The notes below the pieces were generated by a model. The model had not been told where the DNA came from. It saw nothing but the letters and a program-made list of their open reading frames with translations, and made no database searches. Below, in pieces: positions 1 through 41,020 of a stretch of DNA of 64,000 bases; within the stretch, counting starts at the first letter, position 1, and each line of letters begins with the position of its first letter. A program made the position numbers and the translations under genes. The DNA lies in IMG/VR virus record IMGVR_UViG_2814123293_000008, positions 12,264 through 76,263 of that record; one strand, 5' to 3'. Origin of the DNA: a virus (Duplodnaviria > Caudoviricetes).

Positions 1-439
1 CCTTGATGTACGATGCGCTGACATAGGCGGCCTTGCCGTTGTAGCTGACCTTCGCCCAGCCGTTTTCGATACCCTCTACTTGCAGCTCTGCGCCGCAGAC
101 CAGAGCGCCGTATTTGCCGTAGCTGGTGCTGGGGCCGGAGCGGACATTCAGGCCGCTTTTGGCTGTGACCTTGTAGGACTTTGCCGCACCCTCGGTCTTG
201 GCCTTGGAGGACGCGGACAGGCTTCCTGCGGAGGCTGCCGCGTCGATGGCGTCAGCCAGCCACTTTTTGAGCCAGATGTCATCGCGGTCCTGGAGCTTCA
301 GCTGTAGGTCGTCGGTACCGTCCGCCTCCTTGTCGGTGTAGGTGGCCGACAGGAAATAGGGTCGCATACTGCCGGTGATGTCCGCGCCCCGGAAAAAGAT
401 CTGCGCCGTGACGCGGCGCGCCTGATTCGGGCTGCTCAT
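1..439 (-). CDS. Late control D-like baseplate hub protein with an inserted SH3b domain (runs off the window)
   Basis: Manual translation from ATG 439, which overlaps the tail X stop (ATGA): MSSPNQARRVTAQIFFRGADITGSMRPYFLSATYTDKEADGTDDLQLKLQDRD...YKVTAKSGLNVRSGPSTSYGKYGAL...GWAKVSYNGKAAYVSASYIK; position after TMP and tail X. Confidence 0.75.
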   Translation of the reverse strand, partial: MSSPNQARRVTAQIFFRGADITGSMRPYFLSATYTDKEADGTDDLQLKLQDRDDIWLKKWLADAIDAAASAGSLSASSKAKTEGAAKSYKVTAKSGLNVRSGPSTSYGKYGALVCGAELQVEGIENGWAKVSYNGKAAYVSASYIK

Positions 440-37082: not shown

Positions 37083-37328
37083 TCAGCTCCTCTCGGAAAA
37101 CTCATGGATGCAGGCCCCGCAGAGGGAAACCCCGTTGAACTCGACCAGATCCTCCGACGACCCGCAGCAGATACACCCGGGTTTATAGGGGCGGATAAGG
37201 ATTCCGTCCTCCGTCGTGAAAATCTCCATCGGGTCCTCTTCCTTGATTCCGGGGGTGCGGCGCAGCTCCATCGGGATCACCAGGCGCCCTAAGCTATCCA
37301 CCCTCCGCACGATTCCGGTTGCTTTCAC
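37083..37328 (-). CDS. abrB: AbrB/SpoVT-family transcriptional regulator
   Basis: MKATGIVRRVDSLGRLVIPMELRR with C-terminal CxxC...CxxC. Confidence 0.9.
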   Translation of the reverse strand: MKATGIVRRVDSLGRLVIPMELRRTPGIKEEDPMEIFTTEDGILIRPYKPGCICCGSSEDLVEFNGVSLCGACIHEFSERS

Positions 37329-37355
37329 AGAAATCAGCTCCTTTCCATTGCCCGG

Positions 37356-37583
37356 CTACGCTCGCTTAACTTGGCGCAGCGCCCGGGCTACTTTCATGTC
37401 CGGCCGTGCCGGGTGCGTCGCGCGGGCCAGATACTCGACCAGCGCCTCTTCGGTAATCCAGACCTTTCCTCCGGGCTTACGCTGTATGTAGGCCAGGTGG
37501 CCGCTGCTCCGCTCGGCGTCTAAGGTCATTACCGTAATGCCAAGCCGCGCAGCCGCCTCTTTCCGGGTCAACAGGTTTGGCAT
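37356..37583 (-). CDS. xis: Excisionase-like HTH protein
   Basis: LLTRKEAAARLGIT, MerR/HTH_17-like. Confidence 0.75.
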   Translation of the reverse strand: MPNLLTRKEAAARLGITVMTLDAERSSGHLAYIQRKPGGKVWITEEALVEYLARATHPARPDMKVARALRQVKRA

Positions 37584-37606
37584 CTGATTACCTCCTTTCG
37601 CCATCC

Positions 37607-37635
37607 TTGCCTGCCCCATCTTTCCGTGATAAAAT
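37607..37635 (+). promoter_or_regulatory. Sigma-A promoter for the reverse-oriented gene
   Basis: TTGCCT-17 nt-TAAAAT with extended TG. Confidence 0.6.
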
Positions 37636-37658
37636 CCATTGTGAAAGGAGGCGATAGG

Positions 37659-37937
37659 ATGGACTTCAAAATTGAGCTCTTATGCAGTAAATGCAAGTGC
37701 TCTTGTGAATTGCGGCCAGAGGAATTCAAAGCGCGCACATCCATGGAGTGCCCGAATTGCGGTCAGGCGCTTCCGGCGGATGTTTACAACGACTTGAAAG
37801 CTGGGGTCGAGGCCCTTGGGAGGGTCCCGGAACGCATCAGCGAGAATGCCACAAATCCATTTTCCGAAGATCTCTTTACGGTGCGTGTAAAAAGCTTCGG
37901 CACTCTTCACAACCTTCTGGATAACCGCCAAAACTAA
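37659..37937 (+). CDS. Reverse-oriented Zn-binding hypothetical protein (moron-like)
   Basis: SD GAAAGGAGG, own promoter, CSKC and CPNCG motifs. Confidence 0.75.
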   Translation: MDFKIELLCSKCKCSCELRPEEFKARTSMECPNCGQALPADVYNDLKAGVEALGRVPERISENATNPFSEDLFTVRVKSFGTLHNLLDNRQN

Positions 37938-38143
37938 ATCTTTGCCCTGCGTAGACGGCCTTTCGCTACCTCAAGCAATAGCTCTGCTTGCTGGAACGAG
38001 AGGCCGTTATTTACAAGCAAGCCACAGATTTCGTTTGGGATAGTCTTCAGCTTTTCGGTCGGAATTCCAGCCAGGATCTGTTCGGGTTGCTCCTTGTTGA
38101 TAGCAGCCACAGCCTTCTCTAACGCTTCGCACATTTTCTTCAC
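37934..38143 (-). CDS. Hypothetical protein
   Basis: ORF with RBS. Confidence 0.6.
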   Translation of the reverse strand: MKKMCEALEKAVAAINKEQPEQILAGIPTEKLKTIPNEICGLLVNNGLSFQQAELLLEVAKGRLRRAKI

Positions 38144-38340
38144 CTCCTTTTTGACAGGCGCATTCTTCGTAAAAAAGTCACTCCAAAGTAGTTCGCCATT
38201 TTAATTTTCACGGAATCTTTTGGGACGCGCCGGTTTGTTTCGTACATTCTGAGGGAGGATGCGGAGATACCAAGCTCGCTTGCTACCTCGTCTCCGCTTC
38301 TGCCCCCGCGCAATTTTTTAAGCCGCCTACCAAGGTTCAT
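38140..38340 (-). CDS. Second XRE/Cro-like HTH protein (C-terminus possibly frameshifted)
   Basis: LGRRLKKLRG...VASELGIS...YETNRRVP motif. Confidence 0.75.
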   Translation of the reverse strand: MNLGRRLKKLRGGRSGDEVASELGISASSLRMYETNRRVPKDSVKIKMANYFGVTFLRRMRLSKRR

Positions 38341-38362: not shown

Positions 38363-38736
38363 TGTGTAGTCGGTTAAACAGTTTCAGTAAAAAAAATACG
38401 GTCTACGCTTGTGTTGAGTGCCTGGGCGAGCTTCAGCAAGGTTTTGCTGGTTGTGTTCCGCATGGAGCCGTTCTCCAGCGCGGAAATTGTACCACGGCTG
38501 ACACCACTTTTGTCGGCAAGCTCCTCCTGGGTCATCTTCATGGCTTCACGAAGCTCTCGGATTCTGTACCCCATAGCTGCCCCCTCCTTTCTGAAAAATC
38601 GCGGTGTGTTTAACCGGCTGCACAGACATAGTACACCAGGACGCAGGGCCTGTCAAGTGAGTTACACAAATTTTGCTCAATAAATTTCACACTTTTATTG
38701 ACAGCCCTCATGTGCGCGTGTATAATAGATTAAACA
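38363..38736. promoter_or_regulatory. Lysis-lysogeny switch: divergent promoters and four 18-bp operators
   Basis: Plus: TTGACA-17-TATAAT at 38698-38726. Minus: TTGACA-17-TACTAT at 38656-38628. TGT-N12-ACA quasi-palindromes at 38363, 38607, 38651 and 38719. Confidence 0.85.
38374..38574 (-). CDS. cro: Cro-like XRE repressor
   Basis: HTH_3 motif; divergent from cI. Confidence 0.88.
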   Translation of the reverse strand: MGYRIRELREAMKMTQEELADKSGVSRGTISALENGSMRNTTSKTLLKLAQALNTSVDRIFFTETV

Positions 38737-38755: not shown

Positions 38756-39154
38756 ATGACACTGAGCGATTTGGTGCAGGAATACCGCAGGGAGCACGGC
38801 CTGTCCCAGCGTCAATTTGCTTCCATCTGCGGCCTGTCGAATGGCTACATCTCCATGCTGGAGCGGAATGTCAACCCCAAAACTGGCCAGCCGGTAACTC
38901 CATCGCTCCCCGCCTTGAAGAAGATTGCGGACGGAATGAGCATCACGTTAACCGATCTTTTTACCCGCACTGACGACATCCCCGTCGATTTGCTAACAGA
39001 GGGCCTGGATGAAACAACGCCCGCCCCCAAAGCAGGGAGCGGGCGTTGTGGCCTCGACAATGAGTTGGCAGCTATTCTTCTCGAACTGACGCCTGAGAAG
39101 AAGCGGGAGGCGTTGAGCTATCTGCGGTACCTCGCAGAGAGCGCAGATAAATAA
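38756..39154 (+). CDS. cI: CI-like XRE repressor lacking the S24 peptidase domain
   Basis: N-terminal HTH_3, short helical C-terminus; divergent from cro. Confidence 0.88.
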   Translation: MTLSDLVQEYRREHGLSQRQFASICGLSNGYISMLERNVNPKTGQPVTPSLPALKKIADGMSITLTDLFTRTDDIPVDLLTEGLDETTPAPKAGSGRCGLDNELAAILLELTPEKKREALSYLRYLAESADK

Positions 39155-39227
39155 TCAGTCGCCCTTTTTGAGCAACCGACAGCTTTGACAGCATGGCTTC
39201 TATTTCCTGTCGCTCTTTTGATTTCAT
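39072..39227 (-). CDS. Unannotated 51-aa peptide resembling the CI C-terminal domain (candidate anti-repressor)
   Basis: MKSKERQEIEAMLSKLSVAQKGRLIIYLRSLRGTADS...; AAGGAG SD 8 nt upstream; extended -10 TGCTATAAT at 39279-39271. Confidence 0.7.
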   Translation of the reverse strand: MKSKERQEIEAMLSKLSVAQKGRLIIYLRSLRGTADSSTPPASSQASVREE

Positions 39228-39378
39228 TTCCTCAGCTCCTTATCGAAAAGTAGCTGCCGGCAGTGGCACCATTATAGCAAAGGTCAGTAGATTTTTGCTG
39301 GAAAAGATAAAAAATCACTTTCGACATACTTCGGCACGAAAACGCTGTATATTGGAAAATATGTGAAAGGGGATCGCT

Positions 39379-39636
39379 ATGATTATTACTACATCCTTTA
39401 CCGTAGAGGGGCGCCCTGTCATTGAGTACCTGGGTATCGTTTCCGCCGCTCAGGTCATGGCTCTGCCTGGGGGGAACAAGGGGGTGCAGCGTGGGTGGCA
39501 GACAGGCGTAGAAGGGGCCGTTGCCGTCCTTCAGCAGCAGGCCGCAGAATTAGGGGCCGATGCCGTCATCGCCGCCCGCTTTGAACCATTCGGATCCAAT
39601 ATCTGCGCCACGGGGACGGCCGTTCGGCTCGGCTGA
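39379..39636 (+). CDS. YbjQ/UPF0145-family protein
   Basis: MIITT...VEGRPVIEYLGIV...AAELGADAVIA...ATGTAVRL. Confidence 0.85.
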   Translation: MIITTSFTVEGRPVIEYLGIVSAAQVMALPGGNKGVQRGWQTGVEGAVAVLQQQAAELGADAVIAARFEPFGSNICATGTAVRLG

Positions 39637-39790
39637 TACCCTATCCATGCTTTTGCGGATACGGTATGGATAGGGTATCAATAGGGTATGGATACTCGCG
39701 CGCGTGCGCGCGCGACGCGCCTATATCTACTTTCTATTCTATCTTAAGACTAAGTCTGTATTTAATCTTCTGGTTATTCTGTCTTAGGAA
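39635..39790. repeat. Iteron-like 11-bp repeats, (CG)n tract and AT-rich segment (candidate origin)
   Basis: GGATACGGTAT-GGATAGGGTAT-CAATAGGGTAT-GGATAC at 39657-39695; inverted copy at 39635-39648. Confidence 0.6.
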
Positions 39791-39820: not shown

Positions 39821-41020
39821 ATGGCTCGGCCAAAGAAGCCAACCTACGAATGGATTGAGAGCCGTAAAGAATTTCGGAAACGTATCAAGGGGCCAGGAGG
39901 AAAGTACATCGCCCTCTATGCCCAAACGGCGGAGGAGCTGACCGAGAAGATCGCCACCGTTCAGCGCCAGATTGAGGAAGATATCTACCGTCGGGATAAT
40001 CCCACCGTCAAGGACTACGCTGAAAAGTGGCTCACCATGCAGGCCGCGCACGTCCGAGCCACTACGCTGGCCGACTATGCCTCCAAGGTCAAGATCTACA
40101 TCATAGCGCCCCTGGGGGAGAAATACATGGCCGAGGTGACGCCGGATGATATTAAGCTGGCGATCTCCAAGGCAGCAGAGAAGTCGGCTTCTATCTACCG
40201 TAGCGTTCAGATGCTCTACAAGATGATTTTCGGCTCCGCGCTGGAGAATCGCATCATCGACGAAAGCCCGTGTAAAAACCTCAACCCCAAGGGAGGGAGG
40301 GCCCCAAAGGAGAAAACTGCGCTTACCGATAAGCAGGTCAGTATTTTGCTGGATGCCATCCGGGGATTACCGCCGTATCCGTTTGTCATGCTCTGCCTAT
40401 ATGCGGGGCTCCGTCGAGAGGAGGCCCTGGCGCTGCAATGGGATAGCGTTTTTCTGGAGGGGGGCGCCCCTCACATCTCCGTCTGCAGAGCCTGGCACAC
40501 TGAGCACAATAGGCCAGTCATATTGACCGACCTGAAAACCAAGGCGTCCAAGAGGATCATCCCGATCCCTCCCCAGCTGGTGGAATGCCTAAAGGCCGTC
40601 AAAGAAGCAAGCCAGTCTGAGTATGTGATTTCCAACCGGGACGGTGGGCCGCTATCCGGTACCCAGTGGGCGCGACTCTGGAAATATGTAACCGTACGAA
40701 GCACAAAAGAGCGCACATACACCAGATATGTCAAAGGCCAGAAAATCAAGCACACGGTCACGCCGGTGCTTGGAGAGCGGGCCGCTCACAACAAGACCGT
40801 CATTTACAGCATGGACTTTCAGGTGACGCCGCATCAGCTCAGGCATACCTACATCACGAATCTGCTCTTATCTGGCGCTGTTGACGTCAAGACCGCTCAG
40901 GTGCTGGCCGGCCATGAGCACGCGAAAATCACCTTGGACATCTATGCCCACTTGACCTATAATCAGCCTAAAGACTTGATCTCCAAGGTCACGGCCGCCT
41001 TCGCTTCCAGTCCAAAATAA
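39821..41020 (+). CDS. int: Tyrosine recombinase (phage integrase)
   Basis: YAGLRREEALAL, TPHQLRHTY, AGHEHAKITLDIYAH catalytic motifs. Confidence 0.97.
   Translation: MARPKKPTYEWIESRKEFRKRIKGPGGKYIALYAQTAEELTEKIATVQRQIEEDIYRRDNPTVKDYAEKWLTMQAAHVRATTLADYASKVKIYIIAPLGEKYMAEVTPDDIKLAISKAAEKSASIYRSVQMLYKMIFGSALENRIIDESPCKNLNPKGGRAPKEKTALTDKQVSILLDAIRGLPPYPFVMLCLYAGLRREEALALQWDSVFLEGGAPHISVCRAWHTEHNRPVILTDLKTKASKRIIPIPPQLVECLKAVKEASQSEYVISNRDGGPLSGTQWARLWKYVTVRSTKERTYTRYVKGQKIKHTVTPVLGERAAHNKTVIYSMDFQVTPHQLRHTYITNLLLSGAVDVKTAQVLAGHEHAKITLDIYAHLTYNQPKDLISKVTAAFASSPK

Follow-up and report, generated by a model that had tools for sequence, protein, structure and literature searches.

How a prophage whose repressor carries no autocleavage domain is induced is the question raised by the immunity region described here, and to our knowledge the induction of most gut Clostridia prophages is poorly understood. 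The window, which is the whole analyzed stretch of 64,000 nucleotides, is part of a 76-kb IMG/VR provirus record. Genes for RecT, SSB, a helicase loader and ParB-like nucleases are located on the left flank of this region, and on the right flank the gene of a YbjQ-like 85-aa protein is followed by a tyrosine integrase gene (Table 1). The product of the cI-type gene contains an HTH_3 domain above threshold (Pfam, 38.3 bits versus a cut-off of 23, E = 1.4e-9), and the gene is divergent from a Cro-like HTH gene. Based on this position and family, we regard the 132-aa protein as the immunity repressor (CI). Homologues of CI (n = 677) are found in genomes of Oscillospiraceae and other Clostridia and also on many 40-58 kb viral contigs. 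Besides the HTH no Pfam domain was detected in CI, which agrees with the absence of an autocleavage domain reported in an initial annotation of this DNA. The same annotation had seen no ImmA-like or Ant-type gene nearby, and this holds on a larger scale, as Peptidase_M78, Peptidase_S24, ANT and Bro-N are all missing from the whole 76-kb provirus record.

A small gene on the opposite strand, running tail-to-tail with cI, may offer an answer. The 51-aa minus-strand ORF with its AAGGAG motif, the extended -10 element and the 83-nt overlap with cI, all noticed in the initial annotation, are present in the sequence. The gene is missed or nameless in the annotation seen here: it is absent from the gene track and is not recognized by Pfam and PHROGs, and the nearest ESM Atlas clusters are small, score below 0.85 and are labelled "hypothetical protein." Literature searches likewise returned no description of this small-gene family.

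Table 1. Positions of the genes and sequence elements in and around the immunity region (window coordinates unless a residue range or another locus is given).
Feature	Position	Strand	Remarks
AbrB/MazE-fold gene	37083-37328	-	early leftward operon (37083-38340)
HTH_17 excisionase-like gene	37356-37619	-	early leftward operon
Second XRE HTH gene	38140-38340	-	early leftward operon
Cro-like HTH gene, 66 aa	38374-38574	-	divergent from cI; first in early/lytic operon; HTH_3 E 7e-20 (Pfam); synteny conserved
Operator-like palindrome	38662-38680		TTGNACAAA-W-TTTGTNCAA
cI promoter	38698-38726	+	TTGACA-17-TATAAT, 12/12 matches
cI-type repressor gene, 132 aa	38756-39154	+	XRE/SinR-like HTH, linker and hairpin
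CI domains	residues 3-71; 80-97; 99-129		HTH; disordered linker; C-terminal two-helix hairpin (AlphaFold2 model)
Intrinsic terminator of small gene	39006-39049	-	GC-rich 15-bp stem-loop and short U tail; 22 nt past small-gene stop
Predicted small-gene RNA	~39264 to ~39008	-	roughly 255 nt; complementary to final ~145 nt of cI
CI hairpin codons	39050-39142	+	helix 99-110, turn, helix 113-129
Small gene, 51 aa	39072-39227	-	tail-to-tail with cI, last 83 nt overlapping
Core of degenerate ~180-bp palindrome	39119-39149	.	centre 39134
Shine-Dalgarno AAGGAG	39236-39241	-	8 nt ahead of ATG at 39227
10-bp dyad CTGCCGGCAG	39254-39263	.	centre 12 nt past -10; ~+1 to +10 of transcript
Extended -10 promoter of small gene	39271-39279	-	TGCTATAAT
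Second conserved block	39290-39325	-	upstream of small-gene promoter; conserved in diverged loci
YbjQ_1 gene, 85 aa	39379-39636	+	putative heavy-metal-binding
Repeats upstream of integrase gene	39635-39760		inverted/tandem
Tyrosine integrase gene	39821-41020
M78/ImmA-type protease gene, L016	3425-4165 of that locus	-	overlaps repressor 3' end
M78/ImmA-type protease gene, L020	3508-4110 of that locus	-	overlaps repressor 3' end

The initial annotation had made its proposal dependent on the conservation of this ORF. We scanned 118 loci encoding CI homologues for convergent ORFs over the end of cI. Such an ORF was found in every locus with enough downstream DNA and a hairpin-type CI, i.e., a tail of the L..L..L(S/T)PEKK.EAL.YLRYLA type, and it is conserved in 39 distinct repressor/peptide pairs. 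Conservation reaches down to about 45% CI identity, and many of the loci are on 40-58 kb IMG/VR viral contigs. Across 20 diverged lineages, represented by sequences less than 70% identical in the CI tail, the frame is open for 23-38 codons outside cI. The start codon is ATG, or GTG in one lineage, all representative loci have a Shine-Dalgarno-like site ahead of it, and the spacing between TGnTAtAAT and the ATG is constant in most of the 37 distinct upstream regions. As a pattern in the sequences, the recurrence of ORF, Shine-Dalgarno site, ATG, promoter and terminator at diverged loci is far beyond chance. In seven sequences, pN/pS over the 72 nt outside cI is 0.54 in the frame of the ORF, whereas the two remaining frames of that strand give about 1.2; taken alone, this would be weak evidence for coding. 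Against 1.84 billion proteins, a profile of the peptide family gave 175 cluster representatives with E<=1e-3, of which almost all have a length of 37-55 aa, and a word-index search with the single peptide gave two near-identical proteins and no more. A real, conserved gene is supported by these data.

The small gene is confined to the hairpin-type repressors, as no such ORF was found next to homologues with the same HTH and other C-termini. Two of these homologues (L012 and L013) carry a fused Peptidase_S24 domain on the same HTH and have no small ORF, and in two other loci (L016 and L020) a gene of the Peptidase_M78/ImmA type occupies the convergent, overlapping position of the small ORF. The latter is an unusual arrangement, since immR and immA of ICEBs1 are co-directional. 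"Full-length" CI matches in Streptococcus phages turned out to be proteins of 245-281 aa with other C-termini and were rejected as cases of this module.

A further point is the relationship between the peptide and its neighbor. Without gaps, peptide and CI align over 29 columns with 11 identities, and none of 300 shuffles attained this score (z = 6.5). The count equals the 11/33 of the initial annotation once its flanks are included, and we also counted the same five identities outside cI. When profiles of 18 peptides and of 18 CI C-termini were aligned with hhalign, the probability was 96.5% and the E-value 9.7e-10 over 32 columns, which supports the resemblance to the repressor's C-terminus suggested before. 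Restricting the peptides to the part outside cI excludes a contribution from shared DNA; the probability was then 92% (E 6.2e-7, 23 columns) with an unchanged register, and this part is homologous to helix 1 of the CI hairpin. Furthermore, within its own record the peptide HMM matches the C-terminus of CI with an E-value of 4.8e-8. The same hairpin is predicted by AlphaFold2 for both proteins: the peptide model contains helices 3-14 and 18-35 with a pLDDT >90 over residues 1-30 and a disordered stretch from 36 to 51, the CI model contains helices 99-110 and 113-129, and at an alignment offset of 95 no helix boundary differs by more than one residue. We presume that the CI hairpin is an oligomerisation module and that the peptide is its copy.

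In one subfamily (L011, L025 and L031) both tails are altered together (..IKGILSNQ and ..IKSLLSEK), and the peptide stops where the homology stops. This suggests that the STPPASS... tail of the present peptide results from reading on into antisense cI codons. Compared with other CIs, the whole peptide is only marginally closer to its own CI (p = 0.04), and the non-overlapping part shows no excess (p = 0.7), so that there is no locus-specific co-evolution signal beyond the homology of the families. As the paired-versus-unpaired test is weak to absent, we make no claim of specific co-variation or of gene conversion still at work. Judged from sequence, the relationship between peptide and CI is an old homology at family level.

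Searches for further relatives of the hairpin gave weak hits. The peptide model had no match in the PDB at E<=0.001 (Foldseek), and a wide fold search with the 51-aa model (VIA-align) produced tied weak rows, all with Z<=4. Among these rows are C-terminal hairpins of HTH repressors (3ivp, TP901-1 CI 6fxa and CapH 7t5w), which we treat as leads only. With DUF2281 (PF10047), the CI C-terminus of the window scores 13.1 bits and P0048, P0052 and P0270 score 25.9-26.0 bits over profile positions 2-28 of 64 only, all below the gathering threshold of 26.5, and none of the peptides matches this profile. P0270 is an unrelated XRE-type HTH protein of 142 aa with two tandem copies of the hairpin motif (..LPPDK...LL.YLRY..), indicating that the hairpin moves as a module, and the packing of hairpin against hairpin could be modelled on this natural fusion.

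It is well known that SinI inactivates SinR via mimicry of the SinR oligomerisation helices, and the initial annotation had described the peptide as SinI-like. The best fold match of the CI model in the PDB is indeed SinR from the SinR-SinI complex (1b0n_A, E 8.4e-5, 129 columns, Foldseek), and the HTH of CI matches SinR by sequence (E 2e-4). Profiles of the peptide and of the CI C-terminus found no SinI/SinR match at E<=10 among all PDB chains including 1b0n, and no solved chain is related to the CI hairpin in sequence. "SinI-like" is therefore an analogy and not a family membership: the copy of the partner's C-terminal helices stands, whereas sequence homology to the C-termini of SinI and SinR was not found. 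In both systems an XRE-type HTH repressor with a C-terminal helical module for oligomerisation, presumed in the case of CI, is combined with a small partner that is essentially a copy of this module. In contrast, SinR of Bacillus subtilis is a host biofilm switch and the genes described here belong to a prophage immunity region; moreover, sinI is located upstream of sinR on the same strand, whereas the two genes here are convergent with an 83-nt overlap and a common palindrome.

By analogy, the closest functional precedent is AimX/AimC of the extended arbitrium systems of Bacillus phages. AimX is an antirepressor of 29-80 aa, which is encoded convergently with aimC and sometimes overlaps it, and it heterodimerises with the C-terminal oligomerisation domain of AimC, thereby abolishing DNA binding; this domain consists of two helices and a beta-hairpin in AimC_BMBtp14 (bioRxiv 10.1101/2025.11.23.689978). 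Both systems share a short repressor without autocleavage domain, whose gene is divergent from a cro-like gene, and a convergent gene, overlapping here and sometimes in arbitrium phages, for a small helical antirepressor, which is putative in the present case. They differ in that aimR and aimP are missing here, where only the YbjQ_1 ORF and the integrase gene are located upstream of the small gene, and in that AimX is not reported to be paralogous in sequence to the C-terminus of AimC. A tblastn search with CI against 50,697 phage records revealed no Bacillus phage match at E<=1e-3. The protease-based systems ImmR/ImmA, DdrO/IrrE and the LexA-like S24 repressors share the task of inactivating an XRE repressor and are used by homologues of the CI HTH, but the locus described here lacks a protease.

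Taking these data together, we assign a probability of about 0.6 to the small gene product being a decoy antirepressor of the SinI/AimX type and a paralogue of the CI C-terminal domain. We assume that CI, similar to SinR, dimerises or tetramerises via its hairpin to hold its operators. Firing of the small-gene promoter would then lead to the RNA listed in Table 1, and its 51-aa product would adopt the hairpin of the CI type and pair with the hairpin of CI. The resulting CI-peptide heteromers would have a single DNA-binding domain and repression would be lost; the complementarity of the RNA to the end of the cI mRNA and head-on transcription may reinforce the switch. We infer that the peptide binds CI, abolishes repression and induces the prophage. 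The mode of inactivation would be stoichiometric sequestration and not cleavage, whereas relatives of the same repressor use S24 or ImmA-type devices instead.

The same homology and structure evidence would also apply to a peptide that binds the CI hairpin without being the induction switch, for example by SlrR-like tuning or retargeting, by setting the lysis-lysogeny threshold during infection or by acting as anti-immunity against the CI of a related resident prophage. We found neither an inducing signal nor a regulator of the small-gene promoter, and its strong extended -10 could mean a steady low expression. However, the small gene is located exactly where relatives carry ImmA-type proteases, and there is no other inactivation device in the record. 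Therefore, we favor an inactivating role in induction and consider these other roles rather unlikely.

A signal could act on the decoy gene through its upstream region. The dyad CTGCCGGCAG has its sole exact match in the window at this position, and other loci contain the variants CTACCGGTAG or CTGTCGGCAG with changes on both arms. It may function in the DNA as an operator or at the 5' end of the transcript as an RNA hairpin; G-T and A-C mismatches, counted to separate RNA hairpin from DNA operator, amounted to 12 and 13. The second conserved block contains another TGn-AT-rich -10-like element, flanked in several lineages by GAAAG/CTTTTC arms, and may represent a tandem extended -10 promoter or a site for an operator or regulator. 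By eye, we found no convincing CI operator-like half-sites of the TTGAACA type at the peptide promoter and no convincing Cheo/LexA box in the conserved upstream block.

The predicted transcript itself ends within cI. Codons of the disordered CI linker harbor the terminator stem (39049-39014), which is followed by a weak U tail in this window. Of 43 distinct homologous regions, 35 contain a terminator-like site past the small-gene stop codon and on its strand, in the form of a GC-rich stem-loop with a T run behind it, versus none of 43 on the cI strand and 0.9 expected from shuffles, and the sequence of the stem varies between lineages. The linker at 39014-39049, as well as that of homologous loci, is thus encoded by the complement of an antisense intrinsic terminator, and its Pro/Ala/Gly-rich sequence (TPAPKAGSGR) looks as if it were dictated by the GC-rich stem. 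On the plus strand no cI terminator was seen ahead of the small gene, so that cI transcription probably crosses the small gene towards ybjQ and int.

That the mRNA is antisense to cI, as stated in the initial annotation, is in agreement with the predicted transcript, and the functional product could therefore also be the RNA, acting by pairing with the cI mRNA or by convergent transcription, with an incidental or weakly used ORF. The OOP RNA of phage lambda is such a short convergent transcript and overlaps cII, the gene of a lysogeny regulator, at its 3' end. Promoter and terminator define a short RNA over the cI 3' end in our case as well, and no terminator separates cI from the small gene. 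In contrast to OOP, however, this RNA bears a conserved, structured ORF: ATG and Shine-Dalgarno site are correctly spaced in all representatives, the frame stays open outside cI across the diverged lineages and is under pN/pS below 1, and the part outside cI is homologous to CI helix 1 with a confident predicted fold. A function of the RNA alone appears quite unlikely to us.

To get insights into the origin of the decoy gene, we analyzed the symmetry of the DNA. The core of the palindrome is formed by an 8-nt inverted repeat (TATCTGCG at 39119-39126 and CGCAGATA at 39142-39149), to which the YLR and AD matches between the proteins had already been attributed. Scanning +/-150 nt for dyads with arms of 90 nt, we found 40 of 90 complementary pairs in this window (z 3.9). 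The best dyad centre is located 20 nt ahead of the cI end and is common to 13 of 25 representative loci, in which 35-46 of 90 positions are complementary (z 3-5); three further loci, belonging to the IKGILS subfamily, have their centre at -18.5. As the centre is the first base of both CI codon 127 and peptide codon 32, the two frames are mirror images and both strands read similar residues (YLRxL ... AD), which explains these matches. Past the centre, each gene enters the antisense of helix 2 of the other. This geometry fits that expected from an old inverted duplication of the cI 3' end, the origin proposed in the initial annotation; convergence at the protein level as cause of the DNA symmetry would be an alternative explanation. 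The degenerate palindrome with its conserved centre would also suit an ORF that is a decaying relic of the duplication or a by-product of palindromic DNA serving as recombination or binding site, but this is highly improbable, because ORF, start signals, promoter and terminator are found in every lineage examined although the complementarity of the arms is down to 39-51%, and with about 0.32 of random 24-codon stretches being open the chance for 20 lineages is roughly 1e-10, a rough estimate as the lineages are not fully independent.

A more far-reaching reading combines these features in a self-contained, RecA-independent prophage switch, which might have emerged from one inverted duplication. 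Repressor and decoy would be encoded on the two strands of a shared palindrome with the decoy terminator embedded in the linker codons of the repressor, control would be exerted by protein mimicry, antisense pairing and head-on transcription, and the signal input would come through the CTGCCGGCAG dyad. Whether a large group of uncultured gut Oscillospiraceae/Clostridia phages uses it as its general means of induction is speculative, and we regard this wider reading as possible but doubtful. If the decoy function holds true, the principle of SinI and AimX would extend to phages without arbitrium, a decoy could arise via inverted duplication of the 3' end of a repressor gene, and both genes would stay locked by the common palindrome and the embedded terminator. 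The 51-aa peptide provides a testable handle, as expressing it should induce a defined set of prophages.

Some additional features of the region deserve mention. An operator-like palindrome, TTGNACAAA-W-TTTGTNCAA, is located between the cI and cro-like promoters and has equivalents in L051, L001 and L002, and related TTAAACA half-sites are found beside the cI -10 element and near 38605-38615. These sites are probably the CI/Cro operators. The genes for the second XRE HTH protein, the HTH_17 excisionase-like protein and the AbrB/MazE-fold protein in the early leftward operon are all kept in relatives. An 8-mer, TAGCTGCC, has three copies around the module and eight in the window versus two expected; we dropped it, because relatives have not kept it at the start of cro or at the stop of the peptide gene. 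The YbjQ_1 gene separates the immunity module from the integrase gene, and as its place is taken by a SHOCT-domain gene or other small genes in relatives, this position resembles a moron slot. The inverted and tandem repeats immediately ahead of the integrase gene (GATACCCTATCCAT... / ATGGATAGGGTATC) are followed by an alternating CG run and may represent arm-type or att-related sites.
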